From Chloropicon primus (lineage: Eukaryota), in the NCBI GenBank assembly GCA_023205875.1, contig CP060762.1, positions 744,001-767,277 of the forward strand: a DNA stretch of 23,277 nucleotides, written 5' to 3'. Of this stretch, positions 5,479 through 23,277 are shown in pieces; within the stretch, counting starts at the first letter, position 1, and each line of letters begins with the position of its first letter. The notes below the pieces were generated by a model. That model was not told where the DNA came from, ran no database searches, and saw only the letters and a program-made list of their open reading frames with translations. Position numbers and translations under genes: made by a program.

Positions 5479-6521
5479 TCAGCAACACGACTTCTTCTTG
5501 GCCCCCTCCTCAGCTGGCTGGGTGACCACGATGGTCTGCCCCTCTCCCGGTCCCTTGGCGGCCGACTCGTCCGCCTGCAGGGTCTTCTGGCTAACTATCT
5601 TGTAAATCTGGGTCAGGATGTTCTCAAACGCTTCTTCTACGTTGGTGGCGTCCAAGGCACTCGTCTCGATGAAGGAGAGAGTCTCCTTCTCGCAGAAGGA
5701 CTTGGCGTCCTCGGCCTGGACCGACCTCAAGTGCCTCAAGTCGCTCTTATTTCCCACAAGCATGATCACTATGTTGCTATCCGCATGGTCCCTGAGCTCC
5801 TTCAGCCACCTGCCAACGTTGTCGAACGTGGCCTGCTTCGTGATGTCGTACACCAGCAAGGCACCCACAGCACCCCTGTAGTATGCGCTGGTGATCGCCC
5901 GGTACCTCTCCTGGCCAGCCGTGTCCCAAATCTGAGCTTTGACCGTCTTTCCGTCCACCTGGTTGGTTGGTTTCACAAAACAACAACAGCAACGACGACG
6001 AGAGGAGAGGTACGAGCACGGAAGAACGTTCGCGTCAGTCCACGCAACAAGCAACGGGTCGAGAGAGCAGAGTCGAGGGCGCTTGCTGTTCCTGCCCTCC
6101 CCCACCCCCCTTGTCAGGGGAAGGGGCAACGCCTTTCGTAGGCCGTGTGTCCTGGTGCCTTACCTGCATGCTCCTGGTTGCGAACTCAACCCCAATGGTG
6201 GACTTGGACTGCAGCATAAACTCATTGCGCGTGAAACGACTGAGAAGCTGCGACTTTCCCACCGCAGAGTCCCCGATGAGGACGACCTTGAACAGGTAGT
6301 CGAAACTGGAAAGCCGAAAGTCAGTGGACCTAGTCCAAAACAGTAGCACACTCTACCTCTGCCTCTCTCCCTTTCCCCGCCGCGCAGGCGCCCCGGGAGG
6401 AGGAGGAGGCAGGAGGCCAAGGGTTTCGAGTCCGACCCTTTCCTTCCTTCCTCCTCGTGTCGTGTCGTGTCGTGTCGTGTCTTGTCACTTACTCGTCGTC
6501 TGGTTTTCCTGGTAACGTCAT
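5479..6521 (-). CDS. RAB11: Rab11/RabA small GTPase, three exons: 6521-6493, 6305-6164, 5958-5479 (216 aa)
   Basis: Spliced product [28 protein letters not shown]...[45 protein letters not shown]...GNKSD...ETSAL...KKSCC. Both introns are GT-AG and phase-consistent. The terminal CC is a prenylation site. Confidence 0.95.
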
Positions 6522-6611: not shown

Positions 6612-7252
6612 GTGCACCACCAACACCAACAGCGTCGTCGCTCGTTGTTGTTGTTGTTCGTGTGTTGAGTTGGAGTCCCGTGGCCCTCTCCCTCTCCCTC
6701 GTCCTGGTCCTGGTCGTGGTCGTGGTCTCGTCGCTCGTCGCGTTCGTTCTTCTCTCTCTCTCTTCTCGCGTGTCTCTCTCCGATTCTGGCCTTCTTTGTA
6801 TTTGCGTCTTATCTCCCAAAACCTAAAGGAGACGGAGACACCTCAGGAGGGGAATCCCCAGGACCGGACGAGGACGAGGGAGGAGGAAGGACGAGGACGA
6901 GCGTCAACACCAGGGGGAGGGGAACGGAGCGGGGGGGCAATCCAAGGGAAGAACGGGGACCTTCCAAGGAGGGGGGAACGGGAACAAGATCAACTGGATG
7001 CGGGGGGAAATCAGGGGGGAGATCTCGGAGGGCTAGTCTCAAGCTTTGGAACGGAGGAATCAGCTGCAGACCAGCAGACCAGCAGGACAAGGAATGAATG
7101 AATGGATGAATGAATGACAACGAAATACAACAATTATATAACTATACAACTATACGATCACAAACGACAACACCCACCTCGTGCAAGCCTGATCCATCTA
7201 TCCTACACGCACGCACGCACGTACGCAGCGTCGGTCGTACTCCCGTCGCTCC

Positions 7253-8157
7253 TCACCTCCACGCCCCCTTGGACTGCTGCTGGACAAAGTCCTCCTGGTT
7301 GGGAATGTGCCCGTCGTAACTGAAGTCGATGGGGAAGAGGTAGGCACCGGGGGTGGAGGGCTCGGACACGTAATCGAACCTGAAGCCAAGCCAACAAGTC
7401 AACAAGGGAGCGGAGGACAGAATAAGTCAGAAACGACGCGTCTCGACGCACCAAGTTGATCGATCGTGGACCGAGGCTTACGTGATGAGATGGAAATCGT
7501 CCCCAACCTCGATGACGCCGCTTTCCCCCACGCCCAAGGTCGCGAAACCCCGGGAGGAGACCCCCAGGGAATGCCCCTCCAGGTAGAGTCTCCTGAGCAC
7601 CTCGCCGTGCGGCGTGTCAAGCACCTCCACCGTCCCCACCAGGGCGTCCCGCTCCCAGTGGAGCTCGACGAGCTGGTGGCTCACCCTCGTCAGATTGACC
7701 CTTCGGAAGGCCTGGGACCCCAAGCAAGGGCTCGGGTGGTCGAGCTCCCCGAAAGAGAGGCCCGCGGCGACCTTGTCCCTCAAGTACTTTACGACCTCCC
7801 TTTCCAAGACGTGCTTTGGGTAAACACGGCCGTTGCAGTTCATGACACCCGCCCGGTGCACAACTCCTTTCACCATTGCCGCAAGAGAAACCAGCAAAGG
7901 ACGAGCTCGGGTCAGTCCACCGGTCTTTCGGTAACAACAGGGGAACACCCCTGCTTCAGCAGGGAGCGAGGGGTTGGGAAAAAACCAAACACACTTTTCG
8001 TTGTTGTGGCGATGCCACCGCACCCACCTTTGACCACGAGCTTGCCATTGTTGAGCTTGATAGACCTCTCGCAGAGCTTCGAAAGCATCATGCGCTTGTC
8101 CGAGTCCGTGGTCTCTCCATCCATGGACGAAACCACGGTGCTCAGATAACATCCCAT
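7253..8157 (-). CDS. T4 gp21-type phage prohead core protein protease (peptidase S77/S80-like), three exons: 8157-8028, 7866-7482, 7379-7253 (213 aa)
   Basis: Spliced product ...KLVVK|GVVHRAGVMNCNGRVYPKHVLEREV...GELDHP...VSHQLV...EVLDTPHG...LGVSSRGFATL...VGDDFHLI|TFDYVSEPSTPGAYL. It is collinear with gp21 as I recall it (LYIEGIFMQAEVVNRNKRLYPK, GELNHP, GVSSRGLG, VDAVWGPS). Introns 7867-8027 and 7380-7481 are GT-AG with CTGAC/TTGAC branch sites and keep the frame. Confidence 0.88.
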
Positions 8158-8767
8158 CCTACGCCCCCTCGAGGTGAAACCCTTTGCTTGCCAGCAAATC
8201 GAACAGGGGCTCCCCTCAGCCCCCTCTAGGCCCGACCTCCTCGGACATCTCTCCACATCCGCGCTGTGCTGTGCTCCGCTGGTTGGTCCGGTCCCCTGCA
8301 ACGCAATCCAATCCCCTGTTCTCTTCCCTTCTTCCCTCCTCCACACCGTGGTGTGCTCTCTCGCGGCCCACCCAGTGTCTCGTCTGTCGTTGTCTTGAAG
8401 TTTTGGTAGCGTTGACCCTCTCCCCTTTCCCCCCATCCATCGCTCCTTCCCCTCCCCGGCGACCGGAGAGGGGAAGAGCAACCGACAACCCAAGTCTCCT
8501 GGCCCCTCCTCCCGCCACCTTGGCACTATACGATAAGATGGCACGTGACATGGCGCTGCAGGGAGAGGAACCTCGAGGACGAGGGCACTGGGTATCCAAG
8601 GAAGGCGATCAAGGGGGTGGGGAGGCGTGCCGAGCCAGGAGCCATCTTTCGTGTCGTGTCGTGTCCGCACCTGGGCCCTGCCTTGTGGATCCTTCTTTCT
8701 TTTCTTTCACAAAAATGAATCCTAAGGAAGATAAAGATACAGCCTAAACGGCCGGGTTTATGGGTTT

Positions 8768-9770
8768 TCATACACTTGTTTTGCTTGCCAAGCTCTTTGG
8801 CATGGCCATTCCCATGGACACGACGACCTCGAGTCCTTCTCCGACGGTCAAGTTGGTGTGGATGACGTCCTCCTTGGACAGCATGTAGATGTCCCCAACG
8901 TACATGTGGTTCGTGGGCACGTACACGATGACGAGCTCCCCCTGTTCCTCCAGAAAGCAGTGGCCCGTCACAAAGGCAAGGGCGTACTCGCCGTGCCTCG
9001 GGTGCTTGATCAGCACGCACTCCTTGAAGGCGGCGTTTTCGGTCTTGGGGTCTATGGCCTGTCCGATCTGCTTCGCCGCCGAGTAAATCTGGGTCACGAA
9101 CGGCACCTTGGCGAAGATGTTTTCGCTCAGCTGGATGAAGAAACCCCCGACCCAAGACTGCGCCAGCATACCTGAGGGAGGAAAGGGAAAGCGTGCGGAG
9201 CCACTCGTGTCAGCAATCGTCTGTCGAGGGGAGATAATCGCGCGGCTGGTCTGCCATTGGTTTGCTTCACCCACCCGACATAAATATCACAGCCATCGCG
9301 GTGAGAAAGCCAAGCCCTGTGGAGAGACACGAAAAACGAGGCAGTGTCAGCGAAGGGGCGCAGGGCGGTGGCCGAGAGGCGCAAGGGACCCTGCGATAAC
9401 GATGCCTACCAGGAAGATAAAAGCCTATGACGTCTTTGAACATGGGCGAGAATATCCCGTCAACCTTCTCTACAATCCAGCTCGTGACCGCGAGGGTGAT
9501 GAAGACGGGAAGCAGGATCGCGCACCCACTCATGAACGTCTTCGACACCCAGCTCGTCGTCACGGTGGTGATGGTGGCCTCCACTGCCCGCATCGACGGC
9601 GAGGCAAGCAGCAAATCCTCCTCCTCCGCGGCTTGGTCCGGCACGACCGAGGACACGAACGACCCCGCGCCGAGGAATGTCCTCGTGGATGTGGGCAGTC
9701 CGTCCTCCTCTCCATCCGGGTGGCCGTACCTCAGGTCGTCGTTCTTCTTCGCCATCCCATTCCCTTTCAT
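8768..9770 (-). CDS. COV1: COV1/LCV-like membrane protein (DUF502), three exons: 9770-9410, 9316-9275, 9171-8768 (268 aa)
   Basis: Motifs SWVSKTFMSGCAILLPVFIT...VDGIFSP, GLGFLT..AVIF..G|ML AQSWVG, PFVTQIYSAAKQI, AFKECVLIKHPRHGEYA and VYVPTNHMYVGDI. Introns are canonical and phase-consistent. Confidence 0.9.
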
Positions 9771-9849
9771 GTCGTCGTCCTTGTTGTTGTTATTGTTGTT
9801 AATGCCTGTGATGGAATAGGTGTGGTCGTGTAATGTAATGGTAATGGCT

Positions 9850-9992
9850 CGTTGTTGTTGTTGTTGTTTTGTATGTGTTTGTGTTCTCCTTGTCTCGTTG
9901 TTGTGTCGTGTCGTGTCGTGTCGTGTTGTGTTGTGTTGTGTCCCCTTCCTGGTTCCTGGTTCCTCCTCGGTCGTGTGTGTGTCTCGTGTGTG
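9850..9992. repeat. GT-rich microsatellite block: (TTG)n, (GTGTC)n, (GTGTT)n
   Basis: Tandem runs read directly, upstream of the COV1-like gene in the divergent intergenic region. Confidence 0.8.
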
Positions 9993-10561
9993 TCCTCAAC
10001 GCTCTCTCGGCCGTTTCCTCCTCCTCCTCCTCCTCCGTTGGGAGACGTTCCAGAACCCAGGAGCCGAGGGCATCAGAGGCCCGGAGGCCCGGAGAAGGGG
10101 CGTTCGCCCTCCTCCCCCTGGCCGTGGCCTACGGACGAGTACGATTGGGAGCCCCCCCCCCGGCCCCAAGGACGAGTGGAAAGAGCCCCCCTCTTCCTTG
10201 TTGTCTCCTGGTCTTGTCTCCTCTTGGGGGGGGGGTTGTGTCTTGGGTTCGTATAAGGTATTCTTGGCCTCGCCCCAGGGGGAGCCACCACGCCAAGACG
10301 GCTCCAACGAAGAGAACAAGAGCAAGAGCAAGAGGAAGAGGAAGAGGAAGAGGAACGACAGAGAGGGGGCGGAGGACGCGGTACGATTGGATCTTCCACA
10401 CCCCGCACCACCACAACCACCACAACCACCACAAGGAGGACGAACAGGAACACCCTTGAGACCGGGAACACGAGACACGGAGAACACAACAACAAGGGAC
10501 GGAAAGGACCTGACCTGACTGAACCAGGGAGACACGGCGCCGGACTGCACGACGAGACAAG

Positions 10562-11749
10562 ATGACCTTGGACACCTACAAGAGTCCACACTCCGCGTCG
10601 CCAGCGCCGGAAGGAGAGAGGCACAAGAGGGCAAAGGAAATTGCCACCGAGGTGAGACAACGAACGAACGAACGGGGCGCGCTCCTTGGACTCCGGATCG
10701 ATTACCTCTAACACGAACACTCTTGGTTTTGCTTCACAGGAACACCCTTTCAGGATTTACATGGGATATGACAGCCACGAGGACATCACGTTTGAGGTGG
10801 CCAAGCACTCCATCGAGTCAAGGTCCTCCGTGCCTGTGGACATCTTCCCTCTCAAGCGCAAAGAACTTCAGGTAAGGGCTCCGGGAGGATCGTGGGGGAG
10901 CGAGGAAGGAGGGTTGCTGACAGCATTTTGCTCGTAATGTTTTTCCACGCAGCACCGAGGGATCTACAGGAGGGACCAAGACCCAAAGCAGACCACCGAG
11001 TTCACTTACTGCAGATTCTTCGTGCCATACCTGAGCAACTACAAAGGTGAGTGGGAAGCAAAGCAAAGGAAAGCGTGTTCTCCTCTGACTTGACCTGGTG
11101 TTCTGACCCCTTGTTACGCGCGTCGTCGTGCGTGTGTGTGTTCATCCAAGGTTGGGCGATGTTTGTGGACGATGACTTCCTTTGGCTCGGAGATATTGCC
11201 GACCTGCTAGACTACTGTGACGACAAGTACGCCATCATTTGTGTGAAGCACGACTACAAACCAAGCGTGACGACCAAGCTGGCCGGGAGAGAGCAGAGCA
11301 TCTACCCAAGGAAGAACTGGAGCAGCATGGTCTTGTGGAACTGCTCCCACCCAGCTAACCAGAACGTCAGCCTGAGCATGATCAACAAGGAGGGCGGGGC
11401 TTTCTTGCATAGGTTCACCTGGATCGAAGACGATTCTCTCATCGGTGAGGTTCCTTACCACTGGAACTTCTTGGTGGACTGGTACACCCCGTACACCGAG
11501 GAGGAGATCGAGAAGAAGGGAGGCAAGCCTGGCGCGATCCACTACACGGAGGGAGGCCCATGGTTCCCCGATTACCGCGATACCGACTATAGCAAGGAGT
11601 GGTTTGAGGAGCTCAAGGCCTACGAAGCTACGCTGAGCAAGCCAAGGCTGCTTTGCCCCTACGAGAGGTTCTCCGAGAAGGGCGTGGCCCCTCTGGAAGG
11701 GTACGCCAACTCTGGCGATTTGTGGGATTGGGAGCAGGATGAGGGCTGA
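10562..11749 (+). CDS. CDI: CDI-like nucleotide-diphospho-sugar transferase (GT8-like, GT-A fold), four exons: 10562-10651, 10740-10871, 10953-11046, 11151-11749 (304 aa)
   Basis: Motifs FRIYMGYDSHED...HSI, TEFTYCRFFVPYL.NYKG|WAMFVDDDFL (DxD), KHDYKP...KL.G..Q..YPRKNWSSMVLWNCSHP, GAFLHRFTW, WNFLV and AIHYTEGGPWF. All three introns are GT-AG and phase-consistent. Exon 1 is the least certain. Confidence 0.88.
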
Positions 11750-19705: not shown

Positions 19706-21655
19706 TCATCCCGCCCCCCGGGGCGAGACGATGCCGTCGATGGCCTCCACCAGCGCCTGCGTCTCGAACCGGAACTGGCCGTTCCCCTCGGGATCAAAAG
19801 AGTCCACCTCCACGACCCGCACGCCCAGTCCTGAGAGCCTCTCGAGGTCGGAGCTCGGGTCGTACACCGACCCGTGCCTCGGGACCAGCACGTGGGTGAT
19901 GTACTCCGAAGGGGAGTGGGTCAAAACCCCGTTCCTGCCCGACTCTCTCCGGTTCAGGGACGAGCAGACGGCGTTCACGCAGTCCGTGGCCGTGTACCCG
20001 GATATCTCCCTGTCGTGCCAACCGTTCAACAGCAGGATCTGCCAACACGGCGCAAAGACACCAACACACAAAGAAAAAGAAAAAGAATGAGATTCGTCAG
20101 CCGAGCGCGATCCAAGGAGGCACGACAAGCCGGCCGGGGTGCGCCGGGCGATGCGAGGTGTCTCTAATCCATTTTTAACCGAGATCATCGACGCTAAAGA
20201 TCTAACTCAGCCTATCATAAAACTAGAAGGACGCTGTGGGCACCACAAACTCTTGTCCTCGGACTCGGCAAGCAAATATAGAGAAAGGTTGCGAGCCGAT
20301 CCTCGTGCGATGCCGCCCCCAGAGGCGGTTTTCCTGCCCGCCAACGGCGTCGTTACCTTGGTCCTTACCTTCTTGACCCCCTCTCCCCTCTCCGCGATGG
20401 CCTCCCCCACCCCCTGCAGTATCAGGGACGGGCACAGGCTGGTGTAGAAGCTCCCCATTCCGTACACCACGCACGTGGCCTCCCTCAGTCGGTCCAGAAC
20501 CCTCTCGTTCGCCCTCATCACGATCTCGTGCTCGTGCGTCGCGCCCTCGTAGCTGAGGTACATCACCCTCCTGATGGGCGAGTCCAGGGGCTGCTCCGCG
20601 GCAGCCTTGGTCACCCCCAAGTTCGCGCCGCCGCCGTACTCCCTCTCACTCAAGGACATGGGGCTCTGCATCACCTTGGGGTGGCTGATCTCGTTCTGGC
20701 CCCTGATGACCGTGCCGTCCTCCAGCTCCGCCCCCAGCACCAACCGGTCCTCGGTGCAGACGCAAGGCAGCACCAAGCAGTTCTCCGGGATGCCGCTCAC
20801 CCTGCTGTACAGGAAGATGGCGGCCTCAAGGGACCGGAAGAAGATCCTCGCCCCCGCGAAGAAGTAGTTCCCGATGCTCCCGTTCGCAAAGTCAAACCTC
20901 ATGCTGCTCTGCCTCAAGATGTTCTGCTGGAAGTGGACCAGGAACGCCCTTATCGTGTTCTTGTACGGCTCGCTGATCTCCTCCCACAGCTCGTGGTCCC
21001 CCTCCACCACCCGGTACCACTCCGCCTTGGCCTCGTCGCTGTCCCTGGAGCACAGCCTGTGCCCCAAGAGCGCGTTCACCGCCCTCGCCTCCCCCGTGCT
21101 CTCCGAGCTCAGCCGAAGGCACCGGCTCCTGATGTCCCCCACCGCCGGACCGCCCAACACCCTCACGATCTCCGCGGTGCTCCCCCCGTCGTCGCTCACG
21201 GGGAGAACGTGAGTCACCGAGCGGGCAGACGACAGCGACGGCGGACGGAGGTGGCGGGCGCACGAGTTGAGCGCCGTCCCACCGCTGAACACCAAATAGT
21301 CCTCCCTCCCCATCCCCTGCTGGTCCCCCAGCACCATGTCCGAGTCTCTTGGAAGGGGAACGGCAACGACACTCGGCACGAGGTCCTGGTCCAGGTGCTG
21401 GTGCTGGTCCTGGTGCTGATCCTCCCGCGCGGTGGTCGCCGTCCTGCCCGGGTCACCTACCGCGCGAAGAGGAAAACGTCGTGGCCTCTCCTGCTGCTGC
21501 TGCTGCTGCTGCTGGAGGTGGTTGAACAACCGTTGTCCACCTCGTTGTCGTCGTTGGCCACGCCAGGCGTTCGACAACCCACTCCCGCCGCGCGTTGGCG
21601 TGCTCGTGCAAGTGTTCCGCCCGCCTCGAACCCGCGGTCCCGCCCACTGCTCCAT
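19706..21655 (-). CDS. UPF0052/CofD-YvcK family protein (eukaryotic MEE18/YNL011C type), two exons: 21655-20369, 20038-19706
   Basis: Motifs LVFSGGTALN, HVLPVSDDGGSTAEIVRVLGGPAVGDIRSR, FDFANGSIGNYFFAGAR, GAELEDGTVIRGQNEISHP, YGMGSFYTSLCPSL and K|ILLLNGWHDRE. The intron (20039-20368) is GTAAGG...CTGAC...TTGGCAG. The start codon is uncertain; the first ATG is at 21655. Confidence 0.9.
20156..20300 (-). ncRNA. candidate intron-encoded structured RNA (box H/ACA-like)
   Basis: By eye: a 5' hairpin (20259-20299), ANANNA = ACAAGA (20251-20256), a 3' hairpin with an internal loop (20163-20227) and ACA (20159-20161). No target was identified. Confidence 0.4.
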
Positions 21656-22315
21656 GCCTCGCCGAGCCCAACCCACCCCTCCCTCGTTGTTCTGTGGCGG
21701 TGCGAGGGTTGGGAGATGCCCAAGCCCCTGGTGTCGAGGGGAAGAGGGAGAAGGAGAGGAGATCTTGGGACAATGCGGAGTGGGAGAGGAGAGGAGGCAA
21801 GGAGAGGTGTGTTATGGGTAGTTGTTCGTGGATTGGATCATCTTGGTTTGGTTCATGCTGACTTGATTGTGTAATGTAGGTGTGTATGATATGATTCTGT
21901 TGCTATTATTGTCCATTTTGGGGCCTATTTTTTGGTACGAATAGTGGAGTGACGGATCCAGTTCGTGTCCGATGGCTGTAAAACTTTGTCAGAAGGGGCT
22001 TGTATTTTATATTTGGATACTGTTTGAATATGGTGTATGTACACGTAGTCCTTGAACCTGTAGAGGTCCATCTGTCGGACCACTAAAACCCAAACCACAG
22101 ACCTCCATGGATGATGATGATGTTGTGTGAATAGAGTCCGTGATGGAGAGACCTGTTCCGGGTGGAGTGCAATCTAGGGCACCAGAGAATAACGAGGTCC
22201 AATCGTAAACCTTACCCTGATCCACTCTTCTGCTGGAATCCGTCGTCTTATGCGACCTGGTTTAGGGCCGACTAAAACCCAGATCACACTTAAAACCTAT
22301 ACTAGAAGGAAAACT

Positions 22316-22817
22316 GCGGTGGCTCGGAGGCACCACGGAAAGCTTGGATGATGCGACGGTGTCTTTCTCTTAGGCTTCTTTTGTTCTCCGGCTCCTTTCC
22401 TTGGCCAAGTCGTCCTTCCTTTCTTCCTCGGGCAAACCCTACTCAAGACACTTCGGACCCACGAGAGGGCCTTTTAGGCGTTAGGTTTTGGGACTCCCAA
22501 GGCTTTAGGAAACGCGGTGACTCGGAGGCACCACGGCAAGCTTGGATGATGCGACGGTGTGTTTGTCTTAGGCTTCTTTTGTTCTCCGGCTCCTTTCCTT
22601 GGCCAGGTCGTCCTTCCTTCCTTCCTCGGGCAAACCCTACTCAAGGCACTTCGGACCCACGAGAGGGCCTTTTAGGCGTTAGGTTTTAGGACTCCCAAGG
22701 CATTAGGAAACGCGGTGACTCGGAGGCACCACGGCAAGCTTGGATGATGCGACGGTGTCTTTCTCTTAGGCTTCTTTTGTTCTCCTGCTCCTTTCCTTGG
22801 CCAGGTCGTCCTTCCTT
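22316..22817. repeat. subtelomeric tandem repeat, 198-bp unit, ~2.5 copies
   Basis: GCTTGGATGATGCGACGG recurs at 22342, 22540 and 22738 (period 198). Copies differ by a few substitutions, and the third is cut off at the telomere. Confidence 0.95.
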
Positions 22818-23277
22818 AGGTTTGTAGGTTTGTAGGTTTGTAGGTTTGTAGGTTTTAGGTTTTAGGTTTTAGGTTTTAGGTTTTAGGTTTTAGGTTTTAG
22901 GTTTTAGGTTTTAGGTTTTAGGTTTTAGGTTTTAGGTTTTAGGTTTTAGGTTTTAGGTTTTAGGTTTTAGGTTTTAGGTTTTAGGTTTTAGGTTTTAGGT
23001 TTTAGGTTTTAGGTTTTAGGTTTTAGGTTTTAGGTTTTAGGTTTTAGGTTTTAGGTTTTAGGTTTTAGGTTTTAGGTTTTAGGTTTTAGGTTTTAGGTTT
23101 TAGGTTTTAGGTTTTAGGTTTTAGGTTTTAGGTTTTAGGTTTTAGGTTTTAGGTTTTAGGTTTTAGGTTTTAGGTTTTAGGTTTAGGTTTTAGGTTTTAG
23201 GTTTTAGGTTTTAGGTTTTAGGTTTTTGGGTTTTAGGTTTTAGGTTTTAGGTTTTAGGTTTTAGGTTTTAGGTTTTT
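22816..23277 (+). repeat. telomere: (TTTGTAGG)x4 then ~60 x TTTTAGG
   Basis: G/T-rich strand runs 5'->3' to the end of the window. Variant octamers occupy 22821-22852 and heptamers start at 22853. Confidence 0.98.

Follow-up and report, generated by a model that had tools for sequence, protein, structure and literature searches.

A nuclear gene of the green alga Chloropicon primus encodes a phage-type prohead protease with a predicted lipid-anchor start

What is a gene for a phage prohead protease doing in the nuclear genome of a green alga? To our knowledge, no protease of clan SH has a known role other than virion assembly, and it is rare for a gene of a tailed phage to settle lastingly in a eukaryotic nucleus. 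The gene lies in a 23,277 nt stretch of contig CP060762.1 of Chloropicon primus, here called the window, to which all positions refer. Two things about it are already known: its name in databases, and the listing of S77 for Chlamydomonas, without a function, in a review. Added here, from sequence comparison, are the replacement of the phage N-terminus and the clade-specific changes in the active-site loops.

Joining the three minus-strand exons gave 642 nt encoding 213 amino acids, with a single terminal stop (Table 1). The spliced product was identical, letter for letter, to the NCBI model QDZ23205.1 (Chloropicon primus, locus tag A3770_09p57230), which carries the name 'prohead core protein protease'. 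The initial annotation, made from the letters of the window, had proposed this three-exon protein with canonical introns and with the same His, Ser and Asp codons, and it was rebuilt exactly. The gene is not as easy to miss as it had remarked: NCBI had already named the gene, and the review lists the Chlamydomonas gene as family S77.

Table 1 Features of the protease locus and its neighbours in the window.
Feature	Position	Strand	Basis or remark
Exon 1, Met1 to first base of Gly44	8028..8157	-	Predicted acylation start, followed by a helix and the first strand, both with homology to phage proteases
Intron 1, 161 nt, GT..AG, phase 1	7867..8027	-	Branch motif CTGAC at 7915; homologues bridge junction
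Exon 2, NCNGRVYP motif, catalytic His and Ser	7482..7866	-	Sequence and profile matches
Intron 2, 102 nt, GT..AG, phase 2	7380..7481	-	Branch motif CTGAC at 7430; read-through reaches stop after LIT
Exon 3, catalytic Asp, short tail, stop	7253..7379	-	Sequence and homologues
His87 (T4 gp21 His85)	7736..7738	-	Alignment; invariant in 133/133 aligned proteins
Ser147 (T4 gp21 Ser140), presumed nucleophile	7556..7558	-	Alignment; invariant in 133/133
Asp174 (T4 gp21 Asp168)	7373..7375	-	Alignment; Asp at at least 90% of 133 rows
MGCYLS, predicted N-myristoylation (Gly2, Ser6) and S-palmitoylation (Cys3) motif	8140..8157	-	Sequence pattern
Algal-clade loop after His-Pro, insertion ending in Phe-Arg/Phe	7703..7732	-	Alignment
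Phe151-Ala152, algal signature SSRG[WF]A after nucleophile	7541..7546	-	Alignment
Upstream neighbour, DUF502 host gene	8768..9995 (approximate)	-	Pfam; context
Downstream neighbour, Ras-family small GTPase	5479..6352 (approximate)	-	Pfam; context

The two-intron splice model is supported by homology across the junctions. Both were spanned gap-free by the homologues P0134 and P0254, which read K-G/Q-G-x-L-H and LIT-FDYV at these places, and the first was also spanned by the phage protein P0257, reading NNGKLVVKGV. The motif CTGAC was found ~50 nt before the acceptor in both introns, as in the introns of both flanking genes. Reads of three RNA runs compared with 7240-9180 left the protease gene and its neighbour practically uncovered, which counts neither for nor against transcription here. 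A search for orthologues with a shared intron position, suggested in the initial annotation, yielded other green algal members; 14 of the 15 members of the P0002 and P0003 clusters (environmental relatives) ended at LIT, the site of the in-frame stop in intron 2 here. Judging from these protein ends, intron 2 appears to be common to the 14 relatives. Four other acceptors of intron 1 keep the frame open, and were rejected because only 7866 restores the KG-V of the homologues. A translation start at ATG 7876 was also rejected, exon 1 being homologous to other family proteins. The frame of exon 1 is open from 8706, and an upstream in-frame ATG at 8436 likewise begins with Met-Gly; it could give a longer isoform or an extended N-terminus burying Gly2. 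Orthologues start at the Met equivalent to 8157. The accessible part of a published table gives two heterozygous coding SNPs for the locus, with 26 possible offsets along the gene.

As judged by sequence, predicted fold and triad, the protein is a member of family S77 that stands outside any prohead system. It scored 81.5 bits against Pfam S77 (PF03420; cut-off 27; E 7e-23), and 6/6 full-length algal-type proteins exceeded this cut-off. Exon 2 alone matched Pfam S77 (2.9e-18), PHROG 207 (1.7e-31) and PDB 5JBL (2.3e-7). A structure model from 133 sequences reached pLDDT 87 and pTM 0.82 (a model from the single sequence, pLDDT 34). Its top three Foldseek matches were chains of 5JBL, the T4 gp21 structure, with an E value of 2e-10 and an rmsd of 1.7-2.6 Å. 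H87, S147 and D174 aligned to H85, S140 and D168 of T4 gp21, where the T4 residues are His, Ser and Asp. These three T4 residues are reported to be the catalytic ones (Fokine and Rossmann 2016). The profile search and the model comparison with gp21 that the initial annotation had called for were thus run, and its claim of a prohead protease with an intact triad was confirmed by the S77 match above the cut-off, by gp21 as the best solved structure and by the triad on gp21 positions. T4 gp21 (MEROPS S77, PF03420, PHROG 207, PDB 5JBL) has the same fold, NxNxRxYP motif and His/Ser/Asp positions as the algal protein. Unlike it, the algal gene is nuclear, contains introns and has no head genes nearby, and the algal protein has an acylation-like start in place of the LLIE-type segment, an insertion after His-Pro and an aromatic residue after SSRG.

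His, Ser and Asp were present in all six full-length algal-type proteins, and they and Arg149 are conserved in three algal lineages whose proteins are just 41-46% identical. From this sequence conservation, the protein is likely to be an active protease. The loops beside the active site are remodelled, as they might be in a protein whose fold now serves binding or scaffolding and which has no more need of proteolysis; the retention of His, Ser, Asp and Arg149 at such low identity speaks against that reading, which we hold to be quite improbable.

The gene resembles its genomic surroundings. Its GC3 was 0.83; four long neighbours had 0.85-0.92, and the gene of a ribosomal P protein had 0.63. 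Its codon adaptation index was 0.62, compared with 0.63-0.64 for the two flanking genes and ~0.3 for introns. The closest phage gene, that of Microcystis phage Mel-JY01, had a GC3 of 0.25 and an adaptation index of 0.14. The host-like codon bias seen in the initial annotation was therefore reproduced, both measures lying near those of the flanking genes and far above those of the closest phage gene. So was its observation that capsid, portal and terminase genes are missing nearby: in a PHROG scan, the 14 other window ORFs matched no head or packaging family, and one matched a PHROG of unknown function. The neighbours, given there as Rab11 and COV1-like, matched the Ras family and DUF502. The families stood, the Ras-family gene being presumably Rab11-like and the DUF502 gene COV1-like. 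Spliceosomal introns (by homology), host codon use and host neighbours are what is expected of a domesticated gene.

The window ends in TTTTAGG telomere repeats, ~15 kb from the gene. Such a location would suit a recent or decaying viral insertion, an intron-bearing endogenous gene of a eukaryotic virus, or contamination. The host codon use, the ordinary neighbours, the intron 2 site common to 14/15 relatives and the orthologues in three lineages all count against this, and so do the viral sequences themselves. The signature SSRG[WF]A was absent from the 73 locus-encoded relatives in viral and metagenome contigs, and 59 viral relatives retrieved with algal patterns were at most 43% identical. 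According to the accessible text of PMC10827195, many eukaryotic assemblies contain protease markers of mirusviruses. For an endogenous mirusvirus or giant-virus gene, the ORFs scanned included no flanking viral marker, and among the viral contigs and herpesvirus proteases compared, the closest relatives were not from eukaryotic viruses. Herpesvirus assemblins (clan SH) belong to the same fold family (best Foldseek E 4e-5) and are far more distant in sequence, with at most 14% identity in the best matches; as a source of the gene, they were rejected on this ground. We regard an insertion or contamination as extremely improbable, and have little doubt that this is a domesticated phage gene.

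The relatives of the protein were collected in three protein searches (best 120 of 334, 165 and 4372 matches). The algal-type set comprised eight representatives (P0001, P0002, P0003, P0134, P0254, P0255, P0256 and P0264). Its named members came from Chloropicon, Pycnococcus provasolii and Hariotina reticulata, and 5/8 were environmental proteins. In every tree the eight rows formed one clade, with a support of 99 in the FastTree of 428 rows, an SH-aLRT of 99 in the tree of 81 rows and 100/99 in the mixture-model tree of 49 rows. For the 81- and 49-row trees, phage rows were thinned at 70% identity and five intein-bearing or split rows were left out; the 49-row set was chosen by hand. The alignments and trees held no sequences of Chlamydomonas, Volvox, Gonium, Micromonas, Ostreococcus or Coccomyxa. 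The algal clade fell inside a 31-row group (94/91) with phage proteases of ~200 aa; support for its nesting among these was weak, and a position as their sister could not be rejected (AU p 0.22). The tree proposed in the initial annotation, built here with algal and phage homologues, gave one algal clade (100/99, 49 rows), with the viral relatives outside.

Among the matches listed, the nearest relatives were ~200-aa proteases of large phages, 43-51% identical; the best isolates were Microcystis phage Mel-JY01 and, for the Pycnococcus protein, Flavobacterium phage immuto. These phage proteases (Mel-JY01, immuto and IMG/VR contigs) share NNG[KR]LxVxG and FD[FY]VSxPST with the algal protein. Unlike the algal gene, they sit in head modules of terminase, portal, protease and S21, and have a low GC3 (0.25 in Mel-JY01). 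Linked terminase, portal and capsid genes stand beside the phage relatives, and none was found among the algal window ORFs scanned. In Mel-JY01 and 2/80 sister loci, which were annotated, terminase and ribosomal protein S21 were found near the protease, and a portal was identified in both loci. These modules resemble those of the S21 phages predicted in the accessible text of PMC9723584 to infect Bacteroidetes. Since the sister phages resemble such S21 phages though Mel-JY01 is recorded as a cyanophage, they do not point to a single host for the donor, and they speak neither for nor against a donor route via the cyanobacterial ancestor of the plastid.

Some features of the sister phages were observed in passing. 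Mel-JY01 (PP395634) is recorded as a cyanophage, yet it has S21 in the head module and a protease near that of the Flavobacterium phage, like the Bacteroidetes-predicted S21 phages. S21 lies on the strand of the head genes at L107 14034-14234 and L141 13653-13853, and on the opposite strand in the phages described in the accessible part of PMC9723584. Several proteases of the sister group, including P0135 and P0136, have long inserts just after the catalytic His-Pro, in the same loop as the algal insertion. The insert of P0135 matched Pfam PF14890, which we take to be an intein family.

Prokaryote and metagenome data were also scanned. A search of prokaryote genomes with algal patterns gave no relative (0/17 stretches). 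Relatives of the phage sister protein occurred in 5/600 stretches (58/64 parts scanned), all in metagenome-assembled genomes. In this non-exhaustive scan, the restriction to metagenome sequences argues against a cellular bacterial family. The 16 loci returned by a metagenome scan were 28-46% identical, and none of them was algal. Four loci (L158-L161) carried relatives 60-97% identical to the phage sister protease in metagenome-assembled genomes labelled Pelagibacter, Bacteriovorax and uncultured bacterium; these are probably co-binned phage contigs. Metagenome records of this kind may explain the 'bacterial' label of S77 in the review.

How widespread and how old is the gene in green algae? 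The accessible part of Supplementary Data 2 of Lemieux et al. 2019 (PMC6731263) gives BLAST matches to A3770_09p57230 in 8/13 other green algae, one best match per genome. These are two Ostreococcus, two Micromonas, Coccomyxa, Chlamydomonas (Cre03.g157100, 4e-49), Gonium and Volvox, the Ostreococcus and Coccomyxa matches being weaker (1e-18 to 1e-26). The same part lists no match for Klebsormidium, Bathycoccus, Helicosporidium, Auxenochlorella and Chlorella. With no match in Bathycoccus, Chlorella, Auxenochlorella and Helicosporidium and weaker ones in Ostreococcus and Coccomyxa, the role would be dispensable in some lineages. Chloropicophyceae and Mamiellophyceae split ~950 million years ago, according to the same source. 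If the table matches are orthologues, the transfer is ~950 million years old and the gene was lost in several lineages. An Atlas cluster of 67 members was mostly Chlorophyta where the phylum was known (4 members). A single transfer in an early chlorophyte is likely from these sequence data, the species seen only in the table included.

By its best BLAST match (4e-49), Cre03.g157100 is probably the Chlamydomonas orthologue of the Chloropicon gene. The accessible part of PMC6369806 gives it as transcribed, at 2.1-8.8 in the units of its table, and rhythmic, with phase 21 and a peak at night, in cultures grown without any described infection. A strict link to cilia was considered and dropped: the non-flagellate Ostreococcus and Coccomyxa have matches, and the gene identifier was not found in the accessible part of a cilia and ectosome supplement, whose identifier format was unchecked. 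At the protein level, variation avoided the protease core in 2/3 sets of orthologues. Among near-identical orthologues, 0/156 core sites and 7/173 outside sites were variable in the first set, and 1/140 and 5/110 in the second. The third set (4/127 in the core, 1/21 outside) was without such a contrast. The initial annotation had described an old viral gene, captured and kept, and this description agrees with the single algal clade, the shared introns, the host codon use, the intact triad and the transcribed Chlamydomonas match.

The N-terminus of the algal-type proteins differs from that of their phage relatives. T4 gp21 has LLIE at residues 6-9. A pattern modelled on it for the present analysis, a hydrophobic-hydrophobic-(x)-D/E segment at the N-terminus, was found in 249/307 phage-type and 0/6 algal-type proteins among the matches listed. 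The six full-length algal-type proteins start with MGCYLS, MGCQAS, MGACCS, MRLWCC, MLCGVC and MSYLSL. A Cys in residues 2-7 was found in 5/6 of these, as against 5/307 phage-type proteins among the matches listed. A myristoylation pattern with an early Cys (Gly2, Cys and Ser6) was found in 3/6 algal-type and 0/307 phage-type proteins among the matches listed. All of these N-terminal counts cover six related algal-type proteins and are not independent. We take the myristoylation consensus to be PROSITE PS00008. The sequence pattern points to a lipid anchor at the N-terminus, which we favour on balance.

An alternative is that the domesticated protease is active and soluble, or located elsewhere, the acylation-like starts being incidental. 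P0134, with neither Gly2 nor an early Cys, is one protein in six without any motif, P0256 and P0264 have cysteines and lack Gly2, and the N-termini are otherwise poorly conserved, all of which would suit a soluble enzyme. On the other side, MGC..S or MGACCS starts were found in Chloropicon, an environmental relative and Pycnococcus, the first 27 residues had no variable site in either orthologue set, and the combined pattern was missing from all 307 phage-type proteins among the matches listed. We give a soluble enzyme a minor share of the probability, and continue with the anchored one. Further along, Cys29 (8073-8071, minus strand) in the N-terminal helix was found in 5/6 full-length algal-type proteins, and the phage proteins mostly have Ile or Leu there.

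The active-site loops differ as well. The loop after His-Pro was 14-24 residues long in 8/8 algal-type proteins; among the 348 other matches listed, it had 9 residues in 317, 10 in one and 12 in one, and was not measurable in 29. SSRG[WF]A was found in 8/8 algal-type proteins and in 0/348 others among the matches listed. [IV]TFD[FY]V was common to the six full-length algal-type proteins and likewise found in 0/348 others among the matches listed. The C-terminal helix of the phage proteins is replaced by variable tails in the algal-type proteins.

What could such an enzyme do? The accessible text of PMC9958956 describes T4 gp21 as a pentamer whose active site stays blocked by the N-terminal region up to the removal of nine residues, and that of PMC5694885 states that members of the gp21-type family cut after Glu. 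We infer catalytic activity, acylation, membrane location, Glu specificity and a host substrate from sequence and from analogy with this phage enzyme. The prohead protease gene of a large phage would have been taken up once by the nucleus of an early chlorophyte, and its N-terminal segment would have been replaced by a start for predicted fatty acylation (myristate or palmitate). The enzyme would sit on the cytosolic face of a membrane through its lipid anchor and, its substrate cleft remodelled, would cleave a host protein by limited proteolysis, after glutamate as in gp21. As the N-terminal block of the active site in phages is replaced in the algae, membrane location would become the control on where the enzyme works, in place of capsid closure. 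Taken whole, a phage-derived, membrane-tethered serine endopeptidase that cuts an algal protein and stems from one early transfer seems to us to have an even chance of being right. More tentatively, and somewhat short of even, a phage capsid protease may have been captured by a chlorophyte ancestor ~1 billion years ago, had its capsid-triggered safety catch swapped for a lipid anchor, and now be a Glu-specific, membrane-tethered clan SH enzyme whose substrate is purely cellular, in an undescribed green-algal proteolytic step.

The initial annotation had offered three roles: a processing or signalling protease, maturation of an HK97-fold or encapsulin-like shell, and antiviral cleavage of capsids. 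Given the predicted lipid anchor, the first is the best fit. Shell maturation is the one job established for the S77 family, and the shell here could be unlinked, with its gene at another place in the algal genome or in a resident virus. Yet the algal-type proteins lack both the N-terminal segment and the C-terminal helix of the phage enzymes, the scan of window ORFs gave no head gene, and the part of the C. primus supplements searched does not contain the words capsid, terminase or encapsulin. We rate this role as very improbable. An antiviral protease bound to a membrane would act on algal viruses as they enter or assemble, cutting their capsid, scaffold or other proteins. The ancestor did cleave proteins of the capsid and core after Glu, the patchy loss and the long branches of the algal clade fit defence genes too, and chlorophyte assemblies are reported, in the accessible text of PMC10827195, to contain mirusviruses whose capsids have the HK97 fold. 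Still, one best match per genome and the near-zero core polymorphism are more in line with a stable host substrate than with an arms race, and the Chlamydomonas gene follows the day-night cycle in cultures without described infection. An antiviral role is unlikely in our judgement, and the processing or signalling protease is kept as the preferred role.

The published record on algal S77 proteins is brief. In the accessible text of Zou and Bozhkov 2021 (PMC8643629), Chlamydomonas has S77 and Arabidopsis does not, the role is unknown and the family is labelled bacterial; this text gives no phage origin or mechanism for the Chlamydomonas S77. We liken Cre03.g157100 (S77, 'bacterial' type) to the Chloropicon gene by its BLAST score. 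Our literature search, with most subscription papers outside its reach, found no paper on the phage origin or the N-terminus of algal S77. The word 'prohead' does not occur in the main text of PMC6731263, PMC12301720 or 10.1101/2022.05.02.489867, nor in those supplements of PMC12301720, PMC13213038 and PMC6919629 that were readable.

Irwin et al. 2022, on gene transfer between viruses and eukaryotes, may list the S77 transfer. Eukaryotes have domesticated other viral genes, such as the T7-like organellar RNA polymerase, Twinkle and the retroviral-like proteases Ddi1 and ASPRV1. Like the algal protease, these are viral enzymes kept for a cellular job. They are replication or transcription enzymes or derive from retroelements, whereas the algal gene comes from a virion-assembly enzyme of tailed phages. 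A copy kept across green algae with an altered N-terminus and altered loops would show the shift of a capsid-maturation enzyme to cellular use.

Three further features of the window were recorded. A host ORF at 11051-11749 (plus strand), with a probable upstream exon at ~10656-10937, matched phrog_28018 of unknown function (8e-34), without a Pfam or NCBIfam match; it is presumably similar to CDI, a nucleotide-sugar transferase of plants. At 19706-21811 (minus strand), a CofD/YvcK-like gene (Pfam CofD 2.5e-32; TIGR04357 below the cut-off) is the last one observed ahead of the telomere. From 22311 to 23277, a 198-bp subtelomeric repeat occurs 2.6 times, and a few variant units and then ~65 TTTTAGG units follow.
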